Assembly: GCA_965222075.1 (NCBI GenBank)
Contig: OZ244937.1
Location: 224,001 to 288,000 of the forward strand
Direction of reading: 5' to 3'
DNA length: 64,000 nucleotides
From: Candidatus Latescibacterota bacterium
Lineage (GTDB): Bacteria > Latescibacterota > UBA2968 > GCA-2709665
A model generated the notes under the pieces. That model was not told where the DNA came from. It saw only the letters and a program-made list of their open reading frames with translations, and searched no databases. This document shows positions 13,963 through 32,607 of this stretch, piece by piece. The translations under genes and the position numbers were made by a program. Position 1 is the first letter of the stretch. The number at the start of each line of letters is the position of its first letter.

Positions 13963-14024
13963 GACCGTTTAGAACATCGTTTATATGCTGAACAACCGTA
14001 GGATAGGAATCGAGGGCAAAACCG

Positions 14025-14885: not shown

Positions 14886-15091
14886 GTGTTTGTGATTCCC
14901 GACAGGCTGCAATCGAGGTAGAGCACGAGGATTCGGATTATGAAGTGGAGTTGAGACTTAACTGTGTAGCAAGAGAGGTATAGGAATTCCTATCGCGTCG
15001 GCAGCTTTGGCTCTGGTATTGCCTCAAGTATTCGGAGTCATAGATTTTCGAGGCTGAAAGAGCGTTTTTAGAGAGGGAAAGGAGGAATAAA

Positions 15092-16078
<987 letters not shown>

Positions 16079-16126
16079 CCGGGAAGGACAGGGTACTCTC
16101 GCGCGCATCCAGCACGGTTTTCCACT

Positions 16127-17068
16127 TTGCCGGAGAAGGCCAGAGATATCTGGAGGAAGAAACACCCCGATACCGATTACAACCAGGCCGGAGGCATGTT
16201 TGTCGCCGAGCTGCGAAAGGCGATCCCGGGGCGTCCCATTATGACCCTGATGGCCTACCGCGACGGCGGCTATTACCCCCACATCGACTACGACCTGGAG
16301 GAGAGTTACGGGACCGCGCGCATTTACTGGGGCGGGGATGAGCTGGAGATGAAGATCTACATAGACATGAAAGACGCCCCCAGAAACGCACTGCAGGATG
16401 TGTTTGCCCACCTGCGGGCTGATGTCCATCTGGAGGACGAGGGGCTTCAGCGGGCCCGGGAGACCTTCTTCCGCCCATGGGACGGGCGGAGTGGCTACAA
16501 GGAGCACGACAAGCTACGCCGCGAGGCAGAAAGGCGCCATCCCCACGTGAAGGGCATCGACCTCAACTACCTCCACCCCTGGTACGTAGCCACCGGGGCC
16601 ACGAAGGAACTTGGTGGGGAGGTCTATCCGGTCTACACGACGAGGATCAATCGACCGGCCATCTTCTACGGATACGCATTGTCCAGGCTGAGCGATCGTA
16701 TCCCTTCAACCTCCGAAATCCGCTCACCTGCCAGGGTGCGGGACGGCATCTTCTTCCTGGACCTGGGCAGGCCCCTGGAAGATGATTACCGGGAGCTGGA
16801 GGACGTGGCCGTGCGTTACTTCGAGAACGGATTCGTGGTGGTAACCCGGGGCAACGGGGTCGTCCGCTTCCGGCCGGACGAAGAGATGATACCGGAAGGG
16901 ACAAGCGGCCTATGGGACGCATACGAGGGAGTCCCGGCATGGGAGTGGGAACTGCAGAAGGCCGTCAGTATCCACCCGGACTTTTTCCCGGCCGTAGACA
17001 CCTACCGGCCCAGCGGGCGGGTTTATGCTTACCGAGGGAATCAGAACTATAACAGCCCTAAGAGATAA
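16127..17068 (+). CDS. Hypothetical protein, probably 5'-truncated; possible TIM-barrel glycoside-hydrolase-like fragment
   Basis: 313-aa open frame with no good RBS or start. FVAELRKAIPG...IDYDLEESY and RYFENGFVVV weakly recall GH114/GHL15-like proteins. Confidence 0.5.
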   Translation: MPEKARDIWRKKHPDTDYNQAGGMFVAELRKAIPGRPIMTLMAYRDGGYYPHIDYDLEESYGTARIYWGGDELEMKIYIDMKDAPRNALQDVFAHLRADVHLEDEGLQRARETFFRPWDGRSGYKEHDKLRREAERRHPHVKGIDLNYLHPWYVATGATKELGGEVYPVYTTRINRPAIFYGYALSRLSDRIPSTSEIRSPARVRDGIFFLDLGRPLEDDYRELEDVAVRYFENGFVVVTRGNGVVRFRPDEEMIPEGTSGLWDAYEGVPAWEWELQKAVSIHPDFFPAVDTYRPSGRVYAYRGNQNYNSPKR

Positions 17069-17107
17069 GGTGATGTCCACTTTAAGCTTATTACCAAGGA
17101 GACCAAA

Positions 17108-17959
17108 ATGGATGAGTATGAAAAGTACCTCTTCGACCTCAACGGCTATCTGGTCCTGGAGGACGTGCTTACACCTGGAGAAGTGGCCGCCTGCAACGAG
17201 GCCATTGATCAGAATTCCGACAGCATCAGAAGGAGACCCGATCAGCGGTCCAGGGCAGGCGGTTCGAAAGCGCTTCAGGGTAAGATTCGGGGGGATCTCA
17301 TCGGAATGCTCGCCTGGCCCAAACCCTGGTGTGTGCCGTTTCGGGATCTCCTGTCCCATCCCAGAGTCATGGACTGCATGCTCGAGCTACTCGGCGACAG
17401 CTTCCGGCTGGACCATCTTTATGGGATTGTGATGGACAAAGGCACGGAAGGATTCACGCTCCACGGAGGCGGCACCAAGCGGAACAGCTTTGTCCACTTT
17501 TACGGGTTTGTCAACGGACGGATGCGCTCCGGACTCACGGTGGTCTCCTGGGCACTGACCGATTGCGGTCCCGGAGACGGGGGGTTTATGTGCATCCCAG
17601 GCAGCCATAAGTCCAACTACCCGCTGCCCCGGGACATAGCCCGTCTCGAAAAGGACGCTGGGGTGGTCAAACAGGTGCCGGTGAAGGCCGGTTCCGTGAT
17701 CATCTTCACCGAGGCGCTGGCCCACGGCACAATGCCGTGGAAGGCGGACCACGAACGCCGTTCTGTCCTTTACAAGTATACGCCCGGCTCCATTGCCCAG
17801 AACAATCCCGAAGCCTACCGGAATCCGGCGATCACCTCCGATACGAAGAACTACCGGCCTGAAGGTGTCGAGGAGGTGCTGGACGAACTCACCCCGCTTC
17901 AGAGGAAACTAATGGAACGCCCCTACCATCCCAGCCGCCCCAGCCTCACGGCCGTCTAA
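17108..17959 (+). CDS. PhyH-like Fe(II)/2OG oxygenase, copy 2
   Basis: Same motifs as 13117 (TLHGGG, IPGSHK, EALAHGTMPW). Confidence 0.9.
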   Translation: MDEYEKYLFDLNGYLVLEDVLTPGEVAACNEAIDQNSDSIRRRPDQRSRAGGSKALQGKIRGDLIGMLAWPKPWCVPFRDLLSHPRVMDCMLELLGDSFRLDHLYGIVMDKGTEGFTLHGGGTKRNSFVHFYGFVNGRMRSGLTVVSWALTDCGPGDGGFMCIPGSHKSNYPLPRDIARLEKDAGVVKQVPVKAGSVIIFTEALAHGTMPWKADHERRSVLYKYTPGSIAQNNPEAYRNPAITSDTKNYRPEGVEEVLDELTPLQRKLMERPYHPSRPSLTAV

Positions 17960-18037
17960 TCGTTTTCCGGTAAGGTCGGAAATCCCAAACGCGAAACGAC
18001 CAACTCTCCAAGCCATCACACCTGGAGGGATGCGGAA

Positions 18038-18892
18038 ATGGACGAGTACGAAAAGTACCTGTTCGATCTCAACGGCTACCTGGTTCTCGAAGACGTGCTA
18101 ACACCCCAAGAGGTCGCTGCCTGCAATGAGGCCATGGATCGGCACGCCGAGCGCATTCGGTCCGAAGAAGAGGCCAAATCAGGGATGTCCGGCGCCACGG
18201 CCTTCAAGGGCGATCGGGGCCTGGGTTATTTCACCGGGATGCTTACCTGGGACATGCCGTGGTGTCAGCCGTTCCGGGACATGCTGGCCCATCCCAGGGT
18301 GATGTCCTGTCTCTCTGAAATGTTGGGCGAGGCCTTTCGGCTGGACCACATCTACGGAATCACTATGCGGAAGGACACGGGGGGGCTATCGCTCCACGGC
18401 GGCGGCCATTTGCGCCATAATCTGGTGGACTACTACGGGTTCCTCAACGACCGGATGTGCTGCGGCGTCACCGTCGTCTCCTGGGCGCTGACCGACTCCG
18501 GCCCAGGAGACGGGGGCTTTGCCTGCATCCCGGGCAGCCACAAAGCCAACTATCCCCTGCCCCGCGACATGGCCCGCCTCGAAAAAGACCTCGGCGTGGT
18601 CGAACAGGTCCCGGTCAAAGCCGGCTCCGTCATCATCTTCCCCGAGGCGCTGGCCCACGGCACGCTTCCCTGGAAGGCCGACCACGAACGCCGGTCTGTC
18701 CTCTACAAGTACGCCCCCGGCGCGATGACCCACAACCCTCCCGACTCCAGCAAACATCCGACGGTTGTTACAGACACTCTGAACTACCGGCCCCGGGGTA
18801 TTGAGGAGGTCCTGGATGAATTGACGCCGGTCCAGCGGGCGTTGCTCGAGCCCCCCTACCATCCCAGGCGTTTTGACATCCCGGTCGGTTGA
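18038..18892 (+). CDS. PhyH-like Fe(II)/2OG oxygenase, copy 3
   Basis: Same motifs (SLHGGG, IPGSHK, EALAHGTLPW). Confidence 0.9.
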   Translation: MDEYEKYLFDLNGYLVLEDVLTPQEVAACNEAMDRHAERIRSEEEAKSGMSGATAFKGDRGLGYFTGMLTWDMPWCQPFRDMLAHPRVMSCLSEMLGEAFRLDHIYGITMRKDTGGLSLHGGGHLRHNLVDYYGFLNDRMCCGVTVVSWALTDSGPGDGGFACIPGSHKANYPLPRDMARLEKDLGVVEQVPVKAGSVIIFPEALAHGTLPWKADHERRSVLYKYAPGAMTHNPPDSSKHPTVVTDTLNYRPRGIEEVLDELTPVQRALLEPPYHPRRFDIPVG

Positions 18893-19269: not shown

Positions 19270-21990
19270 GTGGTTGGAGATCGACGATCGGTTTTAAAAT
19301 GGGATCGAACGTGGAGAGGCGTCCTGGTCACTGTTGTTGTTTGCAGCCTGTGGGCGGGGATAAGCCCCGCCGCTCAGAAACTGTCCCCCGCAGCTATCGA
19401 TTCCATCTACGGGATGGGGTTAAGAGCCGTGGATATCAGAAGTGTTCTGACAGCGGCGGAACAGCTCGAGAGGGCCGTATCAGACTATCCGAACTCTGCG
19501 GCTCTGCTGATCCGGATCGGCATGCTTTATCTGCGAGCGGAAGAGGCCGATGCTGCGCAGTCGGCGTTTCAGCGGGCCGTTCAGAAAAACCCAAAAAAGG
19601 TCGACGGGCACGTCGGTCTGGGCCGGGTCTATCTCGAGTTGAGGAATGATCCCGGAGGGGCACTACCGCACCTGCGGGCGGCGCTCGCGGCCGATTCCAC
19701 CTATGCCTGGACCCACCTCTTCATGGCCCGGGCGTTGGCGCAGATCGGCGGACGCTACCTGCGGGCGGAACTGGCCGACAGCGCCCGATCAGCGTTCCAG
19801 CAGGCGGTCGGGCACGATCCCATGCTAACGGCTGCACACCTCGGCTTAGGGCGCGTCTACCTGGAGATGGAAGGCGATCCGGAAGGTGCGCTGCCTCACC
19901 TCAAGGCGGCCGTGGCGGCCGATTCCACAGACGCCGGGGCGCACTATCTCCTGGCCCGGGCCTATCGGGAGCTGGAGCGTGTGGAGGCGAGGAAGGCGGC
20001 CGGCCGGGCGATTCGCCACGACCCGACGTATGCCCCGGCCTACCTGCTCCTGGCCGAATCGTATCGCGAGGAGGGCAATCGGCCAGCGGTGATGGTCTAC
20101 TACAAGAAATACCTTGAGCAGCAACCGGCAGACCAGGAGCCGGCCTACGCGTTTGCCCTGGAGCTGCTGGAGGAGAAGCGGTCGAAAGACCTGGAGGAGA
20201 TCACCTCCCTGATGACAGATGATGAGGCGCTGCCCCTGCTGGCGCACGCGCTGATGCACCGGGGCGACCACCAGGGTGCAATCCGGGCGTTTAAGCTCTA
20301 CATCGACAGTTTGGACCCGAAAGAGCGGGGGCTCTACACCGACATTTCCCTGGTGGGGCTGCCCCGCGAACTTGAGGCCTACGAGACGACGCCTCCGGAC
20401 AGGCGGGAGGCGTTTCTGCGGCAGTTCTGGCTGCGCCACGACCCGTTCAAGGCCACCGCTGGGGCGATGCGCCGCGCAGAGCATTACCGGAGGGTCTGGT
20501 ACGCTCGATACCATTATGGGAAGAAGAAGTGGCCGTGGGACCGGCGCGGGGAGGTCTACATCCGCTACGGGGAGCCCGACTATCGCTCCGCCTCCGACAA
20601 CATGAATGCCAAGATCCCCCCCGCCGTACAGCTCGTACAGGACCGGATGGCCTACGAGCTCTACGGACAGGCGGCGACCGGGCTGACCTTTCTGGGGCCG
20701 GTGTTCCCCATCCGAACGGACCTCGGGGCCTATGAGGAACCTCCCCCGGACTTTTCTGATCTCGAAGGGATGGTGGACCTGGAGGGGCTTCCCCTGATTT
20801 CGGAGTCCGAGACGAACCCGTTCAGCGATACGGATGTTGCGGGCGTGCGGCTGGATCCCGAGTTCACGGTCAGCCTCAGCGGATCGAAGCCGGTGGTGGT
20901 GGGCAACAACTGGGCGGCCGTGCCCTGGGAGGTCTGGGTCTATACGGACGTGGGTGACGGCCTGGAGGTGGCGTTCACCGATGAACCCCGCAACGGCAAC
21001 TACGACTACGCCCCTATCCCCAGCGTGAAACAGAGGGACCTGGACCGTCTCGACGAGGATCGCTACGCGGGGCAGACGGCCTACATGCGTCTGATCCAGC
21101 GGCTGACCGAGCTGTCCCCCTCCGTCCGGGTGGCCAAAGTGGTGCGGGAGCAGCCCGAACGCTACGACGTGACCGATTTCGAGCCGCTCGACTTCACCTA
21201 CGACGCGGTCTCCTTCCGGGGGCCAGACGGCCGGACGGAGGTACAGGTGAACGTCGGCATCCCCATCGAAAACGTGGCCCCGTCACTCAGGGCCGACACC
21301 ACGGTCATGGTGAATCGCCGCGTCGCGCTGATCGACGAGCAGCATACGCAGGTGTTTCCCTTGCAGCAGGACCTGGAGGTGCCGATCTCCGGACGGAGAC
21401 AGGGCCGGGCGCTGCTGGACCGGGTGGACATGGTCGTGATGCCCGGGGCCTACGAACTGGCCGTGCAGGTGCATCGCCACAACACCAACCGGCTCCAGTC
21501 TTATGTGCAGGACCTGTCTCTGGAGGATTACTCCGGGAACGACCTGAAGCTCAGCGACCTCTTTTTGGCAAAGGAGGTGACCCAAGCCAGACCTGCGTCT
21601 GACCCGAAATTCGTGCGGGGCGGATGGGAGATCAGGCCGCTGCCGTCGCACGTCTTCCACGTGGGACAGCACGTATCCGTCTATTTCGAAATCTACAACC
21701 TGATGCGGGATAAGTTCGGGGCTACGCACTACGAGGTGGCCTACGAGGTCCATGCATCTGGAACCTACGGGCTGTTGACGCCCATCCTGACGAAGATTCT
21801 GGGGCGGACGGGGACCACGGCGACGGTGCGCTACGAACAGACAGGCACTGAGGAGTGGGTTTCCGGCTATGTAGAAATGGATATCGGGGAGGCCTCTCCA
21901 GGCCGCTACGTGGTCCGGATGACGGTGGTGGACCTGAACAGCGGGCAGGAGGTGAGCAAGGAGGGGATGTTTTGGGTAAAAGAGGAGTAG
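19270..21990 (+). CDS. Secreted TPR-repeat and GWxTD-domain protein
   Basis: Signal-like N-terminus, duplicated TPR blocks (GLGRVYLE...GALPHL), FLRQFWLRHDP...EHYRRVWYA...WDRRGEVYIRYGEPD, WEVWVY, Ig-like C-terminus. Confidence 0.85.
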   Translation: MVGDRRSVLKWDRTWRGVLVTVVVCSLWAGISPAAQKLSPAAIDSIYGMGLRAVDIRSVLTAAEQLERAVSDYPNSAALLIRIGMLYLRAEEADAAQSAFQRAVQKNPKKVDGHVGLGRVYLELRNDPGGALPHLRAALAADSTYAWTHLFMARALAQIGGRYLRAELADSARSAFQQAVGHDPMLTAAHLGLGRVYLEMEGDPEGALPHLKAAVAADSTDAGAHYLLARAYRELERVEARKAAGRAIRHDPTYAPAYLLLAESYREEGNRPAVMVYYKKYLEQQPADQEPAYAFALELLEEKRSKDLEEITSLMTDDEALPLLAHALMHRGDHQGAIRAFKLYIDSLDPKERGLYTDISLVGLPRELEAYETTPPDRREAFLRQFWLRHDPFKATAGAMRRAEHYRRVWYARYHYGKKKWPWDRRGEVYIRYGEPDYRSASDNMNAKIPPAVQLVQDRMAYELYGQAATGLTFLGPVFPIRTDLGAYEEPPPDFSDLEGMVDLEGLPLISESETNPFSDTDVAGVRLDPEFTVSLSGSKPVVVGNNWAAVPWEVWVYTDVGDGLEVAFTDEPRNGNYDYAPIPSVKQRDLDRLDEDRYAGQTAYMRLIQRLTELSPSVRVAKVVREQPERYDVTDFEPLDFTYDAVSFRGPDGRTEVQVNVGIPIENVAPSLRADTTVMVNRRVALIDEQHTQVFPLQQDLEVPISGRRQGRALLDRVDMVVMPGAYELAVQVHRHNTNRLQSYVQDLSLEDYSGNDLKLSDLFLAKEVTQARPASDPKFVRGGWEIRPLPSHVFHVGQHVSVYFEIYNLMRDKFGATHYEVAYEVHASGTYGLLTPILTKILGRTGTTATVRYEQTGTEEWVSGYVEMDIGEASPGRYVVRMTVVDLNSGQEVSKEGMFWVKEE

Positions 21991-22887
21991 GCGAGGACAA
22001 CCGTTCAACAAATAAGTGAGGGGTGTGCATAAATCTTGACATAGTCGGCAAAAGGTCACCACTTGTAGAAGACACCCATCTTCACAAGGAGGCGATCGAT
22101 GAAAGAACCAACAATCACCGACTATGTCGAGCTCATACATACACTATTCGACCGCTTTGCACAAGCCCAAAGAGCCACCCCCAAACAGGGGCGCCCATAC
22201 ATCTACAAAAATAAGCCCTTATTGGTGTTTTTCACCCTGATGCAGTTTCAGCACATCACCCAGTTTAAAACGCAACATCGCTGGCTGAAAACTCATCCTC
22301 AGCATCAGCAACTGCTGGGATTTGAGACCCTTCCAGATCGCAGTACACTGTCTCGTCGATATAAGGTATTCTATCCCACCATCCAGGCCTTAGTCGCCTT
22401 CGTGGGAGAAGATGTCGCGGATTTGGAAGCAGGCTTTGGCGATAAAAATCTTTACGAGGACAAGAGTCCTTTCAAAGCCGCCGGTCCTGTATGGCATCAA
22501 AGCGATCGCAAAGTGGGTCGCGTGCCGGAGAACCTGCGGCGCTTGGACCAGGATGCCAGTTGGTGCAATAGTGCCTATCATAAATGGGTCTATGGCTATA
22601 GCCTGCATCTGACCTGTTCACAAGTCGGATTTCCTAAGCTGGTGCAAGTCGAGACGGGCACAGTGTCCGAAAGTCAGGTCATCGATGAGAAAATCGAGCG
22701 CTGTTACGAAGCCGCCGCACAGCCATCGAACCCATTTTTGATCTGATCGCCAAATTGCTGGGCGCCACCGATAATCATAAACAGCTTTCCATCCAGGGGC
22801 TGTGTAACGTGCGTACTCATTTGGCCTTAGCTGTTTTCACCCTTCAGGTTGCGATGATCGCCAATAGCATTTGGGGGATGCCTCTAA

Positions 22888-23285
22888 CCTGAATAATTCA
22901 CAAAAAAAAGGACCTCTCCCCCCGGCCCCCTCTCCTGCGAGGAGAGGGGGAGCCGAACGAAGTGTTGCGTAAACAACGTTTTATACATTCTGTGATTGCT
23001 CGGACAACGCCATCTCGTCACCCTCCCAATTGCAATTCGCCGACCAATCACGATGTTTCGACCGGATTTTCTTTCATTCGAAACGTCTTCATCCAATCCA
23101 ACCGTTCATTAACCGATCACAGTTCCCCCTTCCTCTCAGGAAGGGGGGCAGGGGGTAGGTCTCGTCTGTTTCAAACGACCCAAATCCAGAATGTATTACA
23201 CATGGGGATTCACTCTCTCTATTCACTCAGAAGCTGTTTTTGCTTCGTGATACCGCTATCCGTGAAAATTCATGAATTAATCAGG
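22888..23285. mobile_element. Non-autonomous MITE-like element (ends resemble IS1380 family) inserted in the transposase gene
   Basis: Inverted ends CCTGAATAATTCA / TGAATTAATCAGG (12/13 match). Perfect 4-bp target duplication CTAA (22884-22887, 23286-23289). Confidence 0.8.
22911..23161. repeat. Pair of inverted REP-like GC-rich hairpin units
   Basis: GACCTCTCCCCCCGGCCCCCTCTCCTGCGAGGAGAGGGGGAG (22911-22952) and an inverted relative at 23124-23161, each with an internal stem-loop. Confidence 0.7.
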
Positions 23286-23350
23286 CTAAGGACTATCTCA
23301 CACATCATCGCTGCTTTTACCTGAATTGTGCACACCCCTCAACTAAGTGG

Positions 23351-23379
23351 TTGACAAATAACGGTAACGGTGGTATTAT
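23351..23379 (+). promoter_or_regulatory. Near-consensus sigma70 promoter for the TonB-dependent receptor operon
   Basis: TTGACA-17 nt-TATTAT with extended -10 TG. RBS TAAGGAGGT before ATG 23470. Confidence 0.8.
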
Positions 23380-23469
23380 GCATCAGTGATTTCCGGTTAG
23401 AGAATTACATGGCGATTAAGCCATAGAAAAAGCAGCAGAAGCCGGGACTTTTCGTAAGGAGGTTATCGT

Positions 23470-26400
23470 ATGGGTCGTGTATTTCGGTTTTTCGGCGTCG
23501 TTCTCGGCCTCTGCCTGCTGGTCGGGCCGGCCTGGTCGCAGTCGTCTTACGGGAAGCTCACCGGGACGGTGACCGATGCGAAGGTCGAGACCCTGCCCGG
23601 CGCAAACGTGGTCCTCGAGGGCACCCGCTTCGGGGCCACCACCGACGCGGAGGGTGTGTACGTAATCCTGGGCATCGAGCCTGGCGTCTACGCGGTGAAG
23701 GTCTCGATAGTCGGCTACGAGTCAATGGTGCAACAGAAGGTACAGGTGGCTGCGGGCCGGACCTCGACGGCGAATTTCACGCTACGGGAGTCGGCGATTG
23801 AGGCGGCGGAGATCGTCGTGACGGCCGAACGGCCCCTCATCGAGATGGACCGGACCGGCAGCGAAACCAAACTCTCCGAGCAGGCCATCGAGCAGACGCC
23901 GATCCTTCGAGACACGAAGCAGCACCTCGAATTCGTGGCAGGGGTCGATCCGGTCAGCAAGGGCGTCGATCGCGGACGCGGCTACAGGTCGTCAAACGGC
24001 GTGCGCATCCGGCGTCAGTTCGGGCAGCTCGCCGACCAGTGGCAGAGCTGGACCCTGGACGGAATCGAGTTGACGATCCTGGATAACGGATACCAGAATT
24101 TCCATCGGCAGTACACCAACATCCCCGTGACCTCCATCGCCGAAATGGCAGTGGTCAAAGGGGGAATCAGTGTGGCCCACGTCTCCACCCTGTCCGGTGT
24201 GGTCAACATCGTCAGCCGCGAGGGGGGGAGGAACTACCACGGCGGGCTCGACGTGTGGATCGAGCCGCCGGGCAAGCGCCACCGCGGGTCCAACGTCTAC
24301 GACGCAACGGTGGGGCAGCGGGGCGGCACGAACGGATTGTGGCAGGACAAGCTCCGGTGGAACGACCCGGACTGGGTCAACGAGGTTGATCCGGTCTCAG
24401 GTCAGCAGATCCACGTCAAGCAGGACTACGAGGGGGCCGTCGGGCACCTCGTGGAGGGATGGTTCTCCGGTCCTCTGGGCAAGAACTCCACGTTCATCGT
24501 GAGCGGAAAGACGGCGCGGGCCAAGGAGATATTCCCCGCGCCCACGCGCGTTGGCCTGCGCCAGTGGTCGGTGTTCGGAAAGCTCGCGTACACGCCCGCC
24601 GACAACCTGAAGCTGAAGCTGGGCTACAACCAGTCGAGCGAACCCCGCTACCAGGGGGACCTCCGGGGCCCGAACACCAACCTGTTTCTGGTGAGGGGGC
24701 ACACGGGCTACGAGCAGCAGTGGCGGAACCTGGTCTTATACACCACGGCTACCCACACGCTCAGCCCGAAGGCCTTCCACGAATTCCAGGTAGGATTCTA
24801 CAGGACGAGCATCGACACGACGAAGGACACGGACAAGACCGCGAGCTCCTGGAGGAGCGACGAGCTGGGGAAGTTCAGGGTGGACAGGCAGTTCCGCCAG
24901 ATCAGGACGGACTACAACCGACGTTACCAATTCCGATATGACCTCACGGGTCAGGTGACGCGCCGGAACCTGTTCAAGACCGGGCTTTCCTACCAGGTGT
25001 TCCGCAACTACACCTACCAATACGACCAGCGGAGCGCAAGCGCCGGTACTATCTACATGATCGCGGAGGACAGCAAAATCAACAAACGCTACACGGCTAA
25101 CCGGCTGGCGTTGTACGCGGAGGACAAGATTGAGTTCCAGGGACTCATCGTCAATGTAGGCCTCCGATATGAGGTCCTGTGGGGCGGCCCCAGGAGACCG
25201 ATGAGCGGCTTTCTCCGCTCTCTGCCGAGCAACGGAACCTACAACGCCTACCAGACGAGGATTCCTTTGGGGCGCGCGAAACCGATGGTCACCTGGCAGC
25301 CCCGGGTGGCCCTCTCCCATCCGCTCACCGACCGTGCCGTGGTCCGCTACTCCATCGGCCAGTACAGCAAGCCGTCCATGTTCGGTCAGATCTGGGGCGA
25401 GACCTGGGAGACCAAAAGGCTCAAGGACCACCCGGAGCTGGACGGCACGTGGGGAAGCGGGCGCTCGCCGAACGGCGGCGGGTGGCGCCTGGACAGCGCC
25501 TTTCACGACCCAGGGGGGTTCTCCCGGATGACCGAGTTCGAGGTCTCCGGGGAGTGGAACTTCGTCAGCGATTTCGTGCTGGACGCCGCCGTCTACTACC
25601 GCCGGTTGGCGGGCACGAACAGCCTGATCTTCCGCCGGTTCTGGGACCCGGTCCGCAGGCTGGTGAACGACTCCCGCGGCCAGGGACCCCAGGGCCGGTT
25701 CGAGTCGCGTGCGATAGAGCTCTCCATCTACAAGCCGTTCTCCAGGAACTTCTCCTTCCGGGTCTCCCTGGACGTGGGATGGGCCTTCAACCTGACCACG
25801 GCCACGGGCAAGTGGCCCCGCCTCATCTACTTCTACCCGGATTCCACCTTCATCGCCAGTGAGTACTACTTCTTTGTGGATGAAAATGACAACCCAGTGC
25901 CGCTCACGGACGCCCAGATCCGGGACATCGGGAGCAGGGCCAACAAGGTCCTGCGGGCCCGGATGAACACCCAGCAGAACCAGACGGCCAAGCAGAACCG
26001 GTTTTACTATTCGGACTACCTGCCCTACCGAGACGCCCTCCCCCACCTCACCGAAGAGGAGAAGAACCTGCCCTGGCACCAGGGGATCTGGGCCACCGAG
26101 GGCTACTGGCCCGACAAGCGCCCCCGCTACACTCCACCGCCCGTCGCGCAGGCCACCTTCCAGTTCCTCTGGTCCACCCCCTCCGACTGGGGCCCCGGGC
26201 CGACCGTGGGGGGATCTAGAATCCTGGGCGGCATCCAGGCCAACCTGGTCTGGCGGTTCGACAGCGGGAACGGAATCCGGTTCACGCCCCCGGGAGCGAG
26301 CTGGTGGGGCGCAAAAAGCGGACCGATGTTCGTGCGGACCGACCTGAACTTCCAGAAGACCTTTAACACGGAAAAGTTCAGGCACACGGTATACGTAGAG

Positions 26401-26583
26401 GTGTTCAACCTCTTCAACTCCTACGTGGACCGCGGGAGCGAACACCCCGGGGAGGCCTACATCAGATGGGGGCTCTTCGGGCCAGTGCCGAGCGACGCGA
26501 AATACCAGAAGTATGGCGATCCGTTGCCGTTCCGGGGCGGCACCCCGCGCTACGTGAACGCGGGCGTACGGATCAGGTTCTGA
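23470..26583 (+). CDS. TonB-dependent outer-membrane receptor with N-terminal carboxypeptidase-regulatory-like domain
   Basis: Signal peptide, GKLTGTVTD...LPGANVVLEGT...GATTDAEG, EIVVTAERPLI, LSGVVNIVSREG plug end, amphipathic strands, C-terminal PRYVNAGVRIRF. Confidence 0.9.
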   Translation: MGRVFRFFGVVLGLCLLVGPAWSQSSYGKLTGTVTDAKVETLPGANVVLEGTRFGATTDAEGVYVILGIEPGVYAVKVSIVGYESMVQQKVQVAAGRTSTANFTLRESAIEAAEIVVTAERPLIEMDRTGSETKLSEQAIEQTPILRDTKQHLEFVAGVDPVSKGVDRGRGYRSSNGVRIRRQFGQLADQWQSWTLDGIELTILDNGYQNFHRQYTNIPVTSIAEMAVVKGGISVAHVSTLSGVVNIVSREGGRNYHGGLDVWIEPPGKRHRGSNVYDATVGQRGGTNGLWQDKLRWNDPDWVNEVDPVSGQQIHVKQDYEGAVGHLVEGWFSGPLGKNSTFIVSGKTARAKEIFPAPTRVGLRQWSVFGKLAYTPADNLKLKLGYNQSSEPRYQGDLRGPNTNLFLVRGHTGYEQQWRNLVLYTTATHTLSPKAFHEFQVGFYRTSIDTTKDTDKTASSWRSDELGKFRVDRQFRQIRTDYNRRYQFRYDLTGQVTRRNLFKTGLSYQVFRNYTYQYDQRSASAGTIYMIAEDSKINKRYTANRLALYAEDKIEFQGLIVNVGLRYEVLWGGPRRPMSGFLRSLPSNGTYNAYQTRIPLGRAKPMVTWQPRVALSHPLTDRAVVRYSIGQYSKPSMFGQIWGETWETKRLKDHPELDGTWGSGRSPNGGGWRLDSAFHDPGGFSRMTEFEVSGEWNFVSDFVLDAAVYYRRLAGTNSLIFRRFWDPVRRLVNDSRGQGPQGRFESRAIELSIYKPFSRNFSFRVSLDVGWAFNLTTATGKWPRLIYFYPDSTFIASEYYFFVDENDNPVPLTDAQIRDIGSRANKVLRARMNTQQNQTAKQNRFYYSDYLPYRDALPHLTEEEKNLPWHQGIWATEGYWPDKRPRYTPPPVAQATFQFLWSTPSDWGPGPTVGGSRILGGIQANLVWRFDSGNGIRFTPPGASWWGAKSGPMFVRTDLNFQKTFNTEKFRHTVYVEVFNLFNSYVDRGSEHPGEAYIRWGLFGPVPSDAKYQKYGDPLPFRGGTPRYVNAGVRIRF

Positions 26584-26623
26584 GAATGGTGTGGTGTAAT
26601 CGTTCAGGTGGACCTTCCATTTT

Positions 26624-26698
26624 TACCGCAAGAGGCGCAGAGATCGCAGAAACAGTCGTGGTTCGGTAAGCGTATCTCTCTCCGGGTCTCTGTGGTGA
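26624..26698. repeat. Degenerate REP-like inverted repeat between operon genes
   Basis: ACCGCAAGAGGCGCAGAGA ... TCTCTCCGGGTCTCTGTGGT imperfect stem. Confidence 0.45.
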
Positions 26699-26723
26699 AC
26701 GCTTACATCAGAAGAGGAGAAAT

Positions 26724-29270
26724 GTGATGACCCGTATAAGCGGATTTCAAAGTGCAGCGCTTGCCGCCGCCGTGCTGGTCGCTTTCTGCGTCCCTGCGGA
26801 GGCGCAGCTCACCGCGGGGGGGACGTCCAATCTGCCGCTGCCCCCCCGGCAGTTGACGCGCGGGCAGCTCTGGCATTCCTACTTCAACACCGGCTGCGAC
26901 GGCTTCCGGGGCGCCGGATCCGTCAACTACGCCAGCAGCACCTACGCGGATCTGGTCTACCCGTCCACCACCATACGGGGCGGTGATGACTACTCTGAAT
27001 ACTTTGGAAGCCGGGCCGCCGCCTACAACCATGTGGAGGTGGACCGGCACAACGGCCGGGGACACGCCTGGTGGATCGCTACCAAGGTAGACGGCAAGGA
27101 GGTGGTTAGCTGGAGCAGCCCTCTGGCCAAGGGCCGGGAGGAGAGCGACGATGTGGTGTTGATGCAGGTGGACCCCACGATCGACTTGGGCGGACGCTTC
27201 GCCAGCGTAGGCAACCCGGTTTCCTCCCCTTTAACGGGGACCGAGATGGCCAACTGGTGGCCCGGGTCCGGGCTTATTTCTCCAGAAGAGCCGATAGAGA
27301 TTCTCAACTACAGGTACGGCCAGTACAACAATGTCGCGACGGACAATTTCCCGGAGGACATCATCCTGTCTAAATGGACGACGGGGACAGGGATTACGGG
27401 CGAGAAGGCCGCATATGCCTGGAACCACCCCGAGTACGACGACCTGATCATCCAGGAATTCATATTTGAGAACACCGGGGATTCGGACGGGGACCGCGTG
27501 GCGGACCTGCCCGGTGGCGGACACGATCTCAGGAATGTCTATTTTGCCTTCCACCACCGGCTGTGTACCAGCTCCGCCGGGGCCTCGCGCGGCACCCAGT
27601 CGGGCTGGTTCTGGGATTTTGGGACGGGAGACGCGTGCGACGGGCCCAACGGGCCCGACGGCAAGGACAACCTCCAGGACGACAAGATCAAGTATACGGA
27701 GGCCCCCAATTACGACGGCCCGGACTGGGCCAGGGGCCTGAAAATGAACTACGTCTACGACTGGGACAACTTCTGCTACGGCGGCCAGATCGCGGACGAT
27801 GTGGGGGACCCCTGGCGGGCCGAGCTCAAGCAGCGCCTCCAGTCGGTACCCATCTACATCTCCAACGGCGACCTGCTGTCACAGGCGTGGATCGGCGTGG
27901 CGGAGATCGATGTGGACCCCACGGACGGATTCGTGGGGGACGACGAGATCTACGTTGCCCCTAAGGTGGCCCAGCAGCCCTTTGCCCACAACCTGTTCTG
28001 GTTCCTGTTCCGGCAGCAGACCTCGGCCGTGAGCAGCGACATACACGGAGACGAGCCGGACCCGACCAAGCTGAGCGACGAGGTGCTCTACCAGATGGTC
28101 ACCCGGTCTCCAGAGTCGTCCTACTTCGACTCCCCCAGGGACTCCCGCCCCACAAGGGGATCCGGCCCTCCCGGCGAGGGTGTGCCCCTGCTGCCCCTGC
28201 CGGACGAGCCTACCGAGCCGATGCCCTATATGCCCAACCCCGTCTGGGAGTGGGAGGGGCGACGGGGCATCGCGGCCGCCTACACGGTAATGGACACCTA
28301 CGGTCCCTACGACCTGGCCCCCGGCGATAAGGTGAAGTTCGTGTTCGCCTATGTGGCGGGGTCTCCCGTGGAGGAGAGTTTCGACTCGTTCAGCCGGCTG
28401 GGCGACAACAGCGAGCTGCGCAAGGAAGAAAACGGCAAGGCCTTCGAGAATCTCGTGAAGCACCTGCGCAAGGCGAAGGAGGCCTACGAGCTTGGCTACG
28501 ATCTGCCGAACCAGCCGCCGGACGTAAAAACGACCCTGGCGTCGTCCAAAAACGCACAGGTGGAGATCTCCTGGCCGGACGACGCGGACACCTCCCCGAA
28601 TCCGGACACCGGGAGGCCCGACGTGGCGGGCTACAAGATCTACCAGTCTGAAACGATCCCGGGGCTGTGGAAGGAGATCGGGGACGTGAAGGTAGGGGAT
28701 GCCCAATACTACGACGCCGCGGCCGGAACCTACACGTTCGAAGATCCGTTGTCGGTGTCAGGATTCTCGTATCTCTACCAGGTGCGGGCCTACCAGGGCA
28801 GCGGGAACGTCGGCTTTGTAAGCCGCAAGACGGGCAGGACGGTGGAGGGGGGCGTAACGGCCTACACGACGGGACCCAGCGATCCGGGAACCTACTACAT
28901 CCCACCCGGCGGGTCAAGCGGCCTCAGCCCGGTGCAGGTACCCTCGATTGAGGCGGACCGGATGGAGCGGCCAATCCATATCGTCCCCAACCCCTACATT
29001 ATAGACGCCGTACACACCTACGAAGGATCACAAAAGATCCGGATCCTGAATCTCCCCAGACGCGCCAAGATCCGGATTTTTTCCGTTGCCGGCAATATGG
29101 TGGCGGAAGAGGTCCACGAGTCCGATACCGTGGGCGAGTTCGGCTACTTCCAGATCAACCGAACGCTCACGGGCCCGCTCACCTTCGGAGTCTACATTGT
29201 GACGGTGGAGTCGATGGTGCCGGAGAGCATGGGCCAGGTCCAGTACGCCAAATTTGTGATCATTCGTTAA
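26724..29270 (+). CDS. Large secreted protein with FnIII-like domain and T9SS-type/FlgD-Ig C-terminal sorting domain
   Basis: Signal peptide ending AEA, acidic Asp/Pro-rich body, VEISW...VAGYKIY...YLYQVRAY, C-terminus VPNPY...KIRIFSVAG...GVYIVTVE...KFVIIR. Confidence 0.8.
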   Translation: MMTRISGFQSAALAAAVLVAFCVPAEAQLTAGGTSNLPLPPRQLTRGQLWHSYFNTGCDGFRGAGSVNYASSTYADLVYPSTTIRGGDDYSEYFGSRAAAYNHVEVDRHNGRGHAWWIATKVDGKEVVSWSSPLAKGREESDDVVLMQVDPTIDLGGRFASVGNPVSSPLTGTEMANWWPGSGLISPEEPIEILNYRYGQYNNVATDNFPEDIILSKWTTGTGITGEKAAYAWNHPEYDDLIIQEFIFENTGDSDGDRVADLPGGGHDLRNVYFAFHHRLCTSSAGASRGTQSGWFWDFGTGDACDGPNGPDGKDNLQDDKIKYTEAPNYDGPDWARGLKMNYVYDWDNFCYGGQIADDVGDPWRAELKQRLQSVPIYISNGDLLSQAWIGVAEIDVDPTDGFVGDDEIYVAPKVAQQPFAHNLFWFLFRQQTSAVSSDIHGDEPDPTKLSDEVLYQMVTRSPESSYFDSPRDSRPTRGSGPPGEGVPLLPLPDEPTEPMPYMPNPVWEWEGRRGIAAAYTVMDTYGPYDLAPGDKVKFVFAYVAGSPVEESFDSFSRLGDNSELRKEENGKAFENLVKHLRKAKEAYELGYDLPNQPPDVKTTLASSKNAQVEISWPDDADTSPNPDTGRPDVAGYKIYQSETIPGLWKEIGDVKVGDAQYYDAAAGTYTFEDPLSVSGFSYLYQVRAYQGSGNVGFVSRKTGRTVEGGVTAYTTGPSDPGTYYIPPGGSSGLSPVQVPSIEADRMERPIHIVPNPYIIDAVHTYEGSQKIRILNLPRRAKIRIFSVAGNMVAEEVHESDTVGEFGYFQINRTLTGPLTFGVYIVTVESMVPESMGQVQYAKFVIIR

Positions 29271-29281
29271 GGAGCATAGCC

Positions 29282-30247
29282 ATGCGGAATATACTCTTGA
29301 TCGGATTGGCGGCGGTGCTCGCGGGTCTTTTCACGCCCACCCGGGGTCAGGCCGTATCCAAACAGGCGCCTCTGGGGGAAACCTACCTGGGCTTTATCGA
29401 AGTTCCCCAGGGGGCGCGGGGGGCCGCTGTGGGAGACGCGTACACGGGCATAACCGACGATGTCAGCTCCGTGTTCTGGAACGCGGCCGGACTCACCGCC
29501 ATGGCGAAAAACCGTTTCCAGTTTACGTTTACCAACACCCAGTGGATCGCCGATATGCAGCTGAACTCCGGGGTGGTGGGCATCAACACCGACTTCGGCG
29601 CCTTCGCCTTCAGCTTCGTGGCGTTTTCCACCGGTGACATCGAGGAGACGACGATCTTCAAGCCGGATGGCACGGGCCGCATGCTCGACACCGGGAACTG
29701 GGCCATCGGCGCGGCCTATGCCAAGCAGTTCACGGACCGCATGTCGGTTGGCGGGCAGTTCAGGGTCATCCAGGAAAAGCTGGACAAAGACTTCAGCTTC
29801 CGCGTATTTGACCTGGCCGTGGGGACGCTTTACCACACGGGGTTCCACAGCCTGCGCCTGGCGATGGCGCTTCGGAACTTCGGGCAGGACAAGACCCTGC
29901 TGCAAGATGACCAGCTCAAGGCCAAGATGCCCTCCTTCTTCAACCTGGCCGCGGCAGCGGAGGTGGTGGGCACCAAGGAAGATCCGGTCTACCTCACGAC
30001 CGCGTTCGAGTTGGTTTACGCCGTAGGCTTCGAGGAACGGATACACATGGGCGGGGAGCTCTGGCTTTGGAACATCCTGGCGCTGCGGGGTGGGTACAAG
30101 TGGAACTACGACTCCCAGGGCTTTACGGCCGGGGCGGGGGTGCGGCTGCAGCGGGGCGTCCACTACCTTCAGGCCGACTTTGCGTGGGTGGACTTCAACG
30201 GCATATTTGACGCCCCCCTCCGGTTTTCCGTGACCGGGTCCTTCTGA
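29282..30247 (+). CDS. PorV/PorQ (UPF0164)-family outer-membrane beta-barrel
   Basis: Signal peptide, FIEVPQGARGAAVGDAYTG...SVFWNAAGL, LALRGGYK, terminal Phe. Confidence 0.85.
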   Translation: MRNILLIGLAAVLAGLFTPTRGQAVSKQAPLGETYLGFIEVPQGARGAAVGDAYTGITDDVSSVFWNAAGLTAMAKNRFQFTFTNTQWIADMQLNSGVVGINTDFGAFAFSFVAFSTGDIEETTIFKPDGTGRMLDTGNWAIGAAYAKQFTDRMSVGGQFRVIQEKLDKDFSFRVFDLAVGTLYHTGFHSLRLAMALRNFGQDKTLLQDDQLKAKMPSFFNLAAAAEVVGTKEDPVYLTTAFELVYAVGFEERIHMGGELWLWNILALRGGYKWNYDSQGFTAGAGVRLQRGVHYLQADFAWVDFNGIFDAPLRFSVTGSF

Positions 30248-30248
30248 A

Positions 30249-30445
30249 GGCCGGCCGGTACCCGTATTCCAGCGCTCACTGCAACACCCACTCAAAGCTC
30301 CCGCGGCCGCTGGGCCCCCTCCAGCAATGGCTCGCGAGGGTCCAGTACGCCTCCGACGAGCGCCTCCACGAACATGTCCTCCTGGTCTGCGTAAACCTCT
30401 TGCAGCTTCTCCACGGAGGAGCACGTCGGGAGATACCCGTCTTCC
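30249..30445 (-). pseudogene. Inverted internal fragment of a third PHP/DUF3604-like gene
   Basis: Minus strand reads EVYADQEDMFVEALVGG...EPLLE/ASGRGSFEWVLQ*ALEYGYRPA, matching YADREDVILEAHVGG...EPLLEVASGHGSFEWVLQRALECGYRPA of 54252. Confidence 0.75.
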
Positions 30446-30448
30446 TAT

Positions 30449-30535
30449 CCGATCAGCATCTGCTGGTATTTCGAGTTCGAGATGCCCCGGATCCACTTGG
30501 ACTGGGGCTGGCGCGACTTCGGCTCCCGGCCCAAA
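30449..30535 (+). pseudogene. C-terminal fragment of a third PHP/DUF3604-like gene
   Basis: PISICWYFEFEMPRIHLDWGWRDFGSRP, nearly identical to 56358-56445. Confidence 0.85.
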
Positions 30536-30600
30536 CTCGTGGAGGTTGGAGCCCGGGAAAAGACCGCAGGAGATCCCAAGCAACTGCGCGGGAGCAGATC

Positions 30601-32607
30601 GTGGCTGAAGGTCTGGAGATAGCAGACGGGACAGGAGATGCAGCGCAAAGACCCGAGGTGGCGGACCGGCGTGACCCCGGCGTGACGCCTCGGTCGATCG
30701 CCTTCGGGCTGTGTCTTTCCGTCGCAGTGAGCCTGCTGGCCAACTCGGTCCGCTATATCTTCCACGGATCCTACATGGCCTTCAGCCAGCTGCCCATGTC
30801 GAATCTGATCCTCTTCCTGCTGTCGCTCCTGGGATGTGCCCTGCTGGCCCGGTGGTTTGGCGGCCGGTGGGCCTTCTCCCCGGCGGAGTGGATCACCGTC
30901 TTCTGCCTGGGGTTCACCAGCACGCTGGGACCCACCTATGGGATCAGCGGCACGCTGATCGGCATGATTGGAACGCCCTATTACTTCGCAACACCGGAGA
31001 ACCGGTGGGCGGAGTTCATTCACCCCCACCTGCCCTCCTGGCTGATCCCCAAAAACGACGGCGGCGCGATGACCTGGTTCTACGAGGGGCTTCCCGCCGG
31101 AGCGTCGATTCCCTGGGACGCCTGGCTGGTCCCGCTGTTCTGGTGGTTCGCCTTCTTCTGCGCCCTGGGGTTGGCCTGCGCCTGTGTTTCCATCATCATC
31201 CACCGGCAGTGGTCGGAGCACGAAAAGGTCGTCTATCCCATGATGGTGCCCGTCGTGGAGATGGCGAGTGGGGGCGGGACCGGGAAGCGGGCCCTGCCGG
31301 AGTTCATGAAGGGAAAGCTCTTCTGGACGGGATTCGGGATGACCACTTTCGTTTTCTGGTGGAACATGATCTCCTGGTTCTACCCACAGTTCCCGACCTT
31401 CCCGACGGCGCAGGGGACCTGGCTCTGGCTGCCGAGCAAGTATCCCCCGGTGTTGATCTTCCTGAGCACCGTGGTCCTCTGCTTTGCCTATTTTGCCAGC
31501 CTGGAAGTCCTGCTGAGCATCTGGGTGTTCGACCTGCTGTTCGTCATCGAGGGGGGGGTCCTCAACCGGCTGGGGGTCGCCGCCACCACGCCGCACTACG
31601 CGACCGGGCGCTACACCTGGCAATCGACCGGGGCCTTCACCGCCCTGGTACTCTGGTGGCTCTGGATGTCCCGGGGACACCTCCGGGCAGCCTTCCAGAA
31701 GGCCCTGCACCCTGGCCGTTCTCCGATGGACGACAGCCGGGAGCTGCTCTCCTACCGGGGTGCGTTTATCGGTCTGACCGTCAGCTGTCTCTACATCGTT
31801 GCGTGGCTGGCAAAGGCGGGCATGGAAGGGAAACTCATCGTCCTGTTGATCCCGACCATGTTCCTTATCTATCTCGGCCTGGCCAAGGTGCTGGCCGAAT
31901 CGGGGATGCTCTTCATCAGACCGCCCACCCCGGCCGGCAGGCTTTCCATTCTTGCCTTCGGAAGCGACTCTGCTTTGCAGGTATCCACCCACACCATCCT
32001 CGCCCTGTGCTGGCAGCCGCTCAACCATTTCAAAGGATTTGCCGTAACGGTGATGGTCCACGTGAACCGCCTGGGCGATTTTGTTCCGAAGGACAAACGC
32101 CGGCTCTTCTGGGGGATCTGCGCGGCGTTCGTGATCGGAATGGTCGCCTCCACGTTCTATACCATCTGGCTGGGCTACACGATCGGAGGATACAACTTTC
32201 TGCCCAACTGGCTGACTTTTGCAGGCAGGTGGACGTATCGGCGGGCCATCAACAGGATCGTAAGCCCCACCCCTTTGGAAACGGAGGATTATCTGTTCTT
32301 TATTGGCGGAGCGGCCGCGATGATCGCCCTGAATCTGATGCGGTACCGCTTCACGTGGTGGCCGCTGCATCCGGTCGGGTTTGCGCTTTCGGGCACCTCG
32401 CTGTTCCACCGGACGAGTACAACGATCTTCATCGCGTGGCTGGCCAAATTCCTTACGATCAGGCTGGCCGGCGCATCGTTCTACCGGAAATCGAAGCCGC
32501 TTTTCATCGGGCTGCTGGCCGGCTTCATCTTAGCCGTGGCGGCAGGCATCGTAGTGGACGCCATCTGGTTCCCGAGCCGGGGGCACATTGTGCACAAGCC
32601 GCACTGA
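30601..32607 (+). CDS. DUF6785/DUF6784-like polytopic membrane protein (putative permease), copy 1
   Basis: Many hydrophobic segments, PYYFATPENRW, HRQWSEHEK..YP, RYRFTWWPLHPVGF. Start codon uncertain (GTG 30601 or 30658). Confidence 0.8.
   Translation: MAEGLEIADGTGDAAQRPEVADRRDPGVTPRSIAFGLCLSVAVSLLANSVRYIFHGSYMAFSQLPMSNLILFLLSLLGCALLARWFGGRWAFSPAEWITVFCLGFTSTLGPTYGISGTLIGMIGTPYYFATPENRWAEFIHPHLPSWLIPKNDGGAMTWFYEGLPAGASIPWDAWLVPLFWWFAFFCALGLACACVSIIIHRQWSEHEKVVYPMMVPVVEMASGGGTGKRALPEFMKGKLFWTGFGMTTFVFWWNMISWFYPQFPTFPTAQGTWLWLPSKYPPVLIFLSTVVLCFAYFASLEVLLSIWVFDLLFVIEGGVLNRLGVAATTPHYATGRYTWQSTGAFTALVLWWLWMSRGHLRAAFQKALHPGRSPMDDSRELLSYRGAFIGLTVSCLYIVAWLAKAGMEGKLIVLLIPTMFLIYLGLAKVLAESGMLFIRPPTPAGRLSILAFGSDSALQVSTHTILALCWQPLNHFKGFAVTVMVHVNRLGDFVPKDKRRLFWGICAAFVIGMVASTFYTIWLGYTIGGYNFLPNWLTFAGRWTYRRAINRIVSPTPLETEDYLFFIGGAAAMIALNLMRYRFTWWPLHPVGFALSGTSLFHRTSTTIFIAWLAKFLTIRLAGASFYRKSKPLFIGLLAGFILAVAAGIVVDAIWFPSRGHIVHKPH

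Follow-up and report, generated by a model that had tools for sequence, protein, structure and literature searches.

What takes the place of SusD where a TonB-dependent receptor gene is followed by a secreted protein with a type IX secretion system (T9SS) C-terminal domain (CTD) and by a PorV-like barrel? The question is raised by a 64,000-nucleotide stretch of a Candidatus Latescibacterota genome (GenBank assembly GCA_965222075.1, contig OZ244937.1, positions 224,001 to 288,000 of the forward strand; hereafter the window, to which all unlabelled coordinates refer). Three forward-strand genes are concerned, encoding a TonB-dependent receptor (23470–26583, 1037 residues; profile and structure matches), a secreted protein that we call the cargo (26727–29270, 847 residues; profile searches and a structure model) and a PorV/PorQ-family barrel (29282–30247, 321 residues; profile NF033709 over its cut-off). 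A reading based on the DNA alone, the sequence-only reading, had proposed that the cargo is a substrate-capturing lid held beside the receptor by its own PorV, with a DUF6785-like permease completing the system. Our preferred interpretation, to which we assign a probability of about 55%, is that the three genes make up an outer-membrane uptake module in place of SusC/SusD, in which the cargo captures the substrate.

The genome, a single 5.36 Mb contig with a completeness of 97.6%, holds 20 genes each for receptor, cargo and PorV in strict 1:1:1 triplets, with no receptor or cargo of these families elsewhere; 23 PorV-family loci exceed the cut-off, and 20 of them immediately follow a receptor and a cargo gene. 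Two triplets carry a frameshifted gene, a receptor split over two frames in L008 (L008:1817–5021) and a cargo split likewise in L011 (L011:5716–8123), each being either a pseudogene or an assembly error. The triplet that the sequence-only reading had seen at one locus is conserved elsewhere: in a neighbourhood survey of 80 loci from other genomes, 79 have the receptor upstream and 76 have PorV downstream. Of the four loci lacking PorV, three stop at the edge of a contig, which leaves L085 as the one real absence. The cargo profile matches 111 of the 121 genomes of the phylum at an E-value of 0.001; the cargo is full-length in all 17 other genomes of the same family, while the large family f3 gives weak and probably partial matches. 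At an E-value of 1e-20 the profile matches 42 of 61 genomes in each of two phyla, entered via KSB1 and Marinimicrobia genomes, and in the 60 best loci of these phyla, which carry flanks of only 1.5 kb, PorV follows the cargo in 56 and a receptor match precedes it in 42. The three proteins have correlated distance matrices (r 0.53–0.58 for 32 dereplicated of 90 complete triplets) and the same nearest neighbour in 14–18 of the 32, which shows co-inheritance and not contact, because linkage alone can produce such a correlation; these alignments exclude the frameshifted L008 receptor and L011 cargo, and the PorV alignment also excludes L009, near-identical to L008. We are left with little doubt that the triplet is one functional unit. 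L008 and L009 (G000:2085652–2120969 in this genome) represent a recent triplet duplication that includes an upstream regulator-like gene; their receptors and PorV proteins are nearly identical, and their cargo N-termini differ. In KSB1- and Marinimicrobia-type genomes, cargo homologues are in addition arranged in tandem arrays or stand as further copies downstream of a single triplet (G121:C354, G121:C427, G148:C2, L095, L098 and L099).

The receptor carries a signal peptide, and its CarbopepD_reg and Plug domains both exceed the Pfam cut-offs, Plug being matched in 42 of 47 homologues. Pfam finds no barrel in the window receptor and its barrel model matches one of the 47 homologues; the receptor profile, however, matches structures of FepA, CirA and SusC at E-values down to 2e-14, and a barrel of 22 strands with very long, conserved loops can be read from the alignment. 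With a plug, a predicted barrel and nine TonB_C matches in the genome, the protein is to be classed by sequence as a TonB-dependent receptor. It does not belong to the SusC/RagA family as defined by TIGR04056, which scores 49.2 bits against a cut-off of 368 and covers the N-terminal part only.

The cargo begins with a cleavable-type signal peptide and has no lipobox; a lipobox pattern is seen in one of the 20 paralogues, which is not the window copy. Its start at ATG 26727 suits the ribosome binding site better than GTG 26724, and the protein, given earlier as 848 residues, is better read as 847, with the FnIII domain and the VPNPY...KFVIIR tail standing as described. The nearest named homologues (56–62% identity) come mostly from Candidatus Latescibacterota, in agreement with the proposed lineage within the Fibrobacterota–Chlorobiota–Bacteroidota (FCB) group but outside Bacteroidota. 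Pfam gave no match in the window cargo and weak best matches in the family (CHU_C in 4 of 19), a PDB sequence search with the family gave nothing below an E-value of 0.36, an ESM Atlas search returned unnamed clusters only, and Foldseek with the cargo model returned FnIII matches only. The model itself (predicted local distance difference test score, pLDDT, 68; predicted template-modelling score 0.74; 234 residues below 50) suggests a mutarotase-like β-supersandwich at residues ~31–600, an FnIII domain at ~595–735 and a CTD at 742–847. The best matches of the modelled supersandwich are the N-terminal domain of a glucoamylase (1lf6; Z 16.7, root-mean-square deviation (rmsd) 3.5, 242 residues aligned), phosphorylases and GH116, followed at Z ~11–11.5 by aldose 1-epimerases, lyase domains and the YidC periplasmic domain. 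This N-domain is the most variable part, with a mean identity of 36% against 41% for FnIII, 44% for the CTD and 45% for PorV; it has invariant Arg45, Glu210, Asp318, Asp319, Asp345 and Asp358, no invariant histidine, and aromatic columns in which the identity of the residue varies.

The CTD (28950–29270) is assigned from its structure match together with profile matches below cut-off. Its model superposes on the CTD of PorZ (5m11; Z 10.7, rmsd 2.4, 88 aligned) and of PorU (6za2; Z 9.0), and the tail can be aligned with the canonical CTDs of the genome, with an insertion after PNPY. TIGR04183 reaches 15.1 of the 23 bits demanded and matches 3 of 47 cargo-family members at E-values of at most 0.1, and NF052228 gives an E-value of 2e-4, likewise below its cut-off. 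The claim that the C-terminal domain is CTD-like is thus borne out by fold and alignment and falls short by the TIGR04183 threshold; judged by the model, the domain is a divergent type A-like CTD, nearest to the uncleaved CTD of PorZ. PorZ and PorU are described as retaining their CTDs (PMC11285876).

The third gene encodes a member of the PorV/PorQ family (NF033709, 162.3 bits against a cut-off of 90) which is not PorV proper (NF033710, 55.6 against 250), and the family profile matches PorV 6h3i_F at an E-value of 1e-18. The 20 triplet copies form one clade (support 99/98), with the other PorV-family genes as long branches outside it; the best canonical PorV candidate of the genome lies outside the triplets in a separate clade and scores 163 bits with NF033710, itself under the cut-off. 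Covariation was measured as mutual information with background correction on 141 cargo–PorV pairs (effective number ~72). The CTD holds 6 of the 10 and 13 of the 25 top covarying pairs, where 1.9 and 4.8 were expected, and the strongest pair joins cargo Lys842, six residues from the end, to PorV Gly118. Gly118 aligns to G116 of Flavobacterium johnsoniae PorV, adjoining F115, and two further PorV residues from top pairs, Ala90 and Met92, align to T83 and N87. In solved substrate complexes a conserved CTD lysine is reported to bind the carbonyls of PorV N87 and F115 (PMC10994853), and from its position we read Lys842 as that lysine. Lysine and glycine are concordant in 70 of 74 dereplicated pairs, of which 38 have both residues and 32 have neither. 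The covariation of Lys842 and Gly118 thereby points, suggestively only, to a contact between CTD and PorV. Together with the private clade it favours the dedicated PorV that the sequence-only reading had postulated, and the cargo is probably tethered on its own PorV-family barrel. Cognate PorV-like barrels have been proposed in a review to shield CTDs from cleavage, as in PorZ–PorQ and PorP/SprF (PMC10202324; PMC9143113).

The proposed absence of a SusD-like lipoprotein was confirmed: no SusD-family match was found among the 43 window proteins scanned, and none in the genome with PF07980, PF12771 and PF14322, each of which was positive in a Bacteroides control; nor does the cargo family give a SusD match in Pfam. 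Across the phylum PF07980 has one match each in 26 of 121 genomes, none of them in the same family. The expectation that core T9SS genes are present held for SprA (TIGR04189, 618 bits summed, in one frame of 2126 codons at G000:747736–753909), beside which no other T9SS gene was recognized. The genome further has 16 canonical CTD matches and a PorU-like gene (213 bits, below the cut-off of 420). GldM and GldN gave no match in the genome, with no control positive, and GldK and GldL were not searched; GldM likewise gave none in 41 and 13 further genomes, again with no positive control, the 'Cytophagia' genome intended as such being grouped with the KSB1 genomes. At L020 (G000:3189380–3196978) a canonical-like PorV gene is followed by genes for an M6-like CTD protein and a 1024-residue TolB-propeller protein, a candidate core T9SS locus.

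How the uptake module might work can be outlined from these parts. All three proteins, which have visible signal peptides, would be exported by Sec. By analogy with T9SS biology, the CTD of the cargo would direct it across the outer membrane through SprA and hand it over to its own PorV paralogue. The CTD would then stay uncut and the cargo remain on the barrel, in the manner of PorZ with PorQ and of SprB with SprF, a step for which the covariation speaks in favour of a contact. The FnIII domain would act as a spacer that positions the β-supersandwich beside the receptor, where ligand may be bound and handed on for TonB-driven import. For a paralogous triplet (L017), the predicted complex of receptor segments 588–1020 and 250–350 with the N-domain of its own cargo (27–490) scored 0.23 against a mark of 0.32, the controls not having been folded, and speaks neither for nor against such an arrangement. 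In the periplasm, sulfatases, lyase-like enzymes and esterases would trim the product, at this locus probably a sulfated, uronic-acid-rich glycan fragment, and DUF6785 transporters of OPT fold, moving with the catabolic genes, may carry the small products into the cytoplasm.

Several findings weigh against this interpretation. The cargo model is only moderately confident, the supersandwich fold is also known from enzymes and from proteins not concerned with sugars, for example the periplasmic domain of YidC, the invariant acids E210, D318, D319, D345 and D358 could be catalytic, and the CTD stays below the TIGR04183 cut-off (15.1 versus 23 bits). Linked genes co-duplicate, so that congruent trees are no proof of contact. 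The CTD columns align better than those of the N-domain, which may inflate the CTD enrichment, and the Lys/Gly trait changes about six times on the tree, so that after correction for descent the pairing is backed by three contrasts on supported branches, of which on average 2.6 run in the same direction and 0 in the opposite one (p 0.25). Many of the SusD-positive genomes among the 26 of 121 also hold the cargo family, and the exclusion is not absolute. GldM and GldN were not found (no positive control), which bears on how T9SS transport would be energized. Furthermore, sulfatases are not enriched near triplets genome-wide, being found at 4 of 20 where 2.6 are expected by chance; the label of a polysaccharide utilization locus suits this locus, and the substrates of the triplets need not be polysaccharides everywhere.

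All top fold matches of the cargo are carbohydrate-active enzymes, aldose 1-epimerases (Z ~11.5) and lyase domains included, and these matches and the invariant arginine and acids would also suit a PorV-tethered surface enzyme (an epimerase, lyase or hydrolase) beside the receptor, in a SusG-like and not a SusD-like role. We consider such an enzyme unlikely, since the best matches fall on the N-terminal supersandwich in GH15, GH65, GH94 and GH116 chains, which is their non-catalytic part, since aldose 1-epimerases use a histidine and none is invariant here, and since all 20 receptor copies come with a single cargo each, as expected of a fixed partner. The variability of the N-domain, with its variable aromatic loops, suits ligand specificity, and on this account we find it distinctly unlikely that the cargo, as a structural cap or an assembly factor, stabilizes or shields the large receptor loops and binds no ligand; such a cap would recall the BamH dome on BamG, whose extracellular loops are described as binding BamH beside BamA (PMC12578637), and would fit both the very long, conserved receptor loops and the occurrence of the fold in YidC. 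The private PorV might, on the other hand, be a transient, cargo-specific shuttle, from which the cargo is released or passed to lipopolysaccharide or to the receptor. Canonical PorV is reported to act as a shuttle (PMC10994853), a PorU-like gene is present, and at L085, 1 of the 80 loci, PorV is missing downstream of the cargo and no contig edge explains this; the genome, however, already has a canonical PorV, the cargo CTD is nearest to the uncleaved PorZ type, and twenty private barrels match the anchor pattern outlined for PorQ–PorZ and PorP/SprF (PMC10202324, PMC9143113), all of which makes a shuttle very unlikely.

The least probable alternative retains the three-gene module and extends it to four parts, with DUF6785 as its dedicated inner-membrane permease, as the sequence-only reading had it. 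The window protein (30601–32607, forward strand, 668 residues; profile matches and structure model) matches DUF6785 with 326 bits and DUF6784 with 75 bits, and its most likely start, GTG 30601, lies 353 nucleotides downstream of the PorV-family gene. Its model (pLDDT 92.7) has barley YS1 as the only Foldseek match (E 6.5e-8, TM 0.61), and superposes on YS1 (PDB 7wsr) with Z 23.4 and rmsd 3.9 over 540 aligned residues, the next match being at Z 5.8. The modelled protein is therefore of OPT/Yellow-Stripe fold, and since the confident model matches YS1 alone it is probably an importer. PF03169 matches none of 44 DUF6785 members at an E-value of 0.1, a PDB sequence search gave no match, and no literature was found under 'DUF6785'. 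A transporter fold and proximity favour membership: DUF6785 genes lie within 10 kb of 14 of the 20 triplets, where a local shift control gives 7.5 (p 0.0005), and downstream within the fetched flank in 51 of 73 external, mostly Latescibacterota, loci. However, 29 of the 46 copies in the genome lie more than 10 kb from any triplet, and the distance to PorV is within 500 nucleotides in only 7 of the 73 external loci. DUF6785 does not co-diverge with the triplet (r −0.10 to −0.02 versus 0.55–0.65 in same-subset controls, n = 14), shares its nearest neighbour in 2–4 of 14 cases versus 9 of 14, and has no match in any of the five triplet genomes, drafts, that were reached via non-Latescibacterota or unlabelled loci. 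DUF6785 is a frequent neighbour of the triplet and not a fixed part of it; an obligate link is largely refuted, and a dedicated fourth component is highly improbable. The adjacency seen here probably arose via gene decay, because between PorV and DUF6785 lie the scrambled remains of a DUF3604/CehA-McbA-like metallohydrolase gene (30246–30547, recognized by blastx to intact paralogues), one piece inverted and internal and one C-terminal, with 42–82% identity to intact paralogues elsewhere in the genome. A second DUF6785 gene (59339–61648), 59% identical to the first, closes the catabolic run described below.

Returning to the three-gene uptake module, its nearest functional counterpart is SusC/SusD (RagA/RagB). 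In both, a receptor of ~1000 residues carries a CarbopepD_reg domain at its N-terminus and is directly followed by a surface partner, and both occur in many paralogous copies with catabolic genes nearby. In SusC/SusD, however, the partner is described as lipid-anchored with a TPR/helical fold (PMC13543919), whereas the cargo has no anchor cysteine and is predicted to consist of β-supersandwich, FnIII and CTD, and the triplet adds a near-obligate third gene for a PorV-family barrel. With PorZ–PorQ and PorU–PorV the triplet has in common an uncleaved-type CTD and a PorV/PorQ-family barrel, and the covarying residues fall on the CTD-binding PorV loops; those pairs, however, are single-copy processing machinery, whereas here there are twenty paralogous pairs, each with a TonB-dependent receptor, and the cargo resembles PorZ in its CTD only. 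The pairs SprB–SprF and PG1035–PorP, with type B CTDs, are described as having one private 14-stranded FadL-family barrel per cargo, first carrier and then anchor (PMC9143113, PMC10994853); here the CTD is type A-like and the barrel PorV-like, and the available portions of these sources describe no nutrient-receptor role for PorP/SprF. BamG–BamH, according to the account in PMC12578637, has a FadL-family barrel holding a surface protein beside a large barrel, as is proposed here, but BamH is a lipoprotein, the large barrel is BamA and there is no CTD or T9SS step. The likeness of the DUF6785 model to OPT/Yellow Stripe 1 extends over nearly the whole length, with only 11–13% identity and no PF03169 match.

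The triplet would resemble SusC/SusD in function, with an anchor of the PorQ or SprF type, while falling outside SusC/SusD by membership tests. No description of it was found in the literature, as judged on titles and the beginnings of abstracts, with subscription-only papers and supplements outside this scope, and it is a real, conserved and apparently undescribed variant. The main text of a 2026 review of glycoside transporters does not mention PorV, T9SS or type IX (PMC13543919), and a Latescibacteria genome paper attributes outer-membrane uptake to non-specific porins (PMC4454575). A tentative generalization, possible and in our view rather doubtful, is that a receptor, a T9SS-delivered supersandwich lid and a private PorV anchor form the standard nutrient-capture machine of the non-Bacteroidota FCB phyla, with a CTD–PorV code (Lys/Gly versus Thr or Ala/non-Gly) sorting lids to barrels and a reduced T9SS of SprA and PorV with no recognizable GldLM motor. 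If so, the SusD problem would have been solved a second time and independently, and the display of nutrient lids would be a main use of the T9SS outside Bacteroidota. The module suggests how substrates may be captured at the surface in SusD-poor FCB phyla (Latescibacterota, KSB1, Marinimicrobia), which are abundant in sponges, sediments and the deep ocean, and it provides a three-gene marker with which to predict uptake loci invisible to SusC/SusD-based tools. It would link the T9SS directly to TonB-dependent import and give a role to many unexplained PorV paralogues, and CTD position −6 with PorV loop 2 provides a testable specificity pair.

The near-consensus promoter and strong ribosome binding site reported in front of the receptor gene were both found. 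The promoter-like site (23351–23379, forward strand), of sigma-70 type and assigned by consensus match only, reads TTGACA-17-TATTAT with a TG-extended −10 element; it agrees with the consensus at 11 of 12 positions, lies 90 nucleotides upstream of the receptor gene and is the sole site in the window scoring above 9 of 12. The number of sites in the window scan does not exceed chance (5 versus 3.5 ± 2.0 in shuffles), and no sigma-70 promoter is common to all triplets, a site of at least 10 of 12 occurring within 400 nucleotides of the receptor start in 5 of 20. The ribosome binding site AAGGAGG (23456–23462, forward strand), recognized from its sequence, is 7 nucleotides ahead of ATG 23470. The tight co-directional spacing holds for the PorV-family gene, 11 nucleotides behind the cargo gene, but not for receptor and cargo, which are 143 nucleotides apart. 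In RNA-library contigs from four sponge metatranscriptome runs, all belonging to one study, parts of each triplet gene are present at high identity, and the same runs have no contig at 36201–38000; such contigs carry no strand, level or transcript limits, and the libraries may contain DNA. One contig (X3, 26507–26903) spans the receptor–cargo gap, which alone is not proof of a single transcript, and among the matches listed (32 of 128) none spans the cargo–PorV or PorV–DUF6785 junction with 31 letters on each side.

Downstream, a co-directional run of catabolic genes identified by domain search (32630–59654, forward strand) encodes a PL2-like protein, three sulfatases, BNR and RGLX-like proteins, an esterase and dehydrogenases; the earlier description of sulfatases, lyase-like and redox genes holds for the content, and the length is ~27 kb in place of ~30 kb. 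PhyH dioxygenases are mildly enriched near triplets (9 of 20 versus 4.5, p 0.03), and three consecutive PhyH paralogues, out of ~49 in the genome, lie at 13117–18892.

Two other families track the triplet better than DUF6785 does. A TPR and GWxTD protein (19270–21990, forward strand; TIGR04514 47 bits versus a cut-off of 28) is encoded 1480 nucleotides upstream of the receptor gene. By iterative profile search its family has 25 members in the genome, 15 of them within 10 kb of a triplet, and a member lies within 2 kb of 11 of the 20 triplets; it diverges in step with the receptor (r 0.78, n = 11) and stands directly behind PorV in 23 of 73 external loci, including the closest relatives of this locus, and is a candidate accessory member. 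A family of small β-barrels (~235 residues, weak TIGR04565 match) has ten copies in the genome, all upstream of a triplet receptor (L001, L004, L006, L007 and L012–L017), and is present in 61 of 90 complete triplets and missing at this locus; its divergence parallels that of the receptor (r 0.55, n = 20), and it is a candidate optional fourth subunit. Its place in many other triplets is occupied here by a low-GC open reading frame of 215 codons (22099–22746), single-copy in the genome and with no Pfam match, which we take to resemble a truncated transposase. Just upstream of the promoter-like site, a 408-nucleotide element with hairpin-like ends (22882–23288), which has a 98.5% copy at G000:3046042–3046449 and a weaker one near 3531000, is probably a small mobile repeat.

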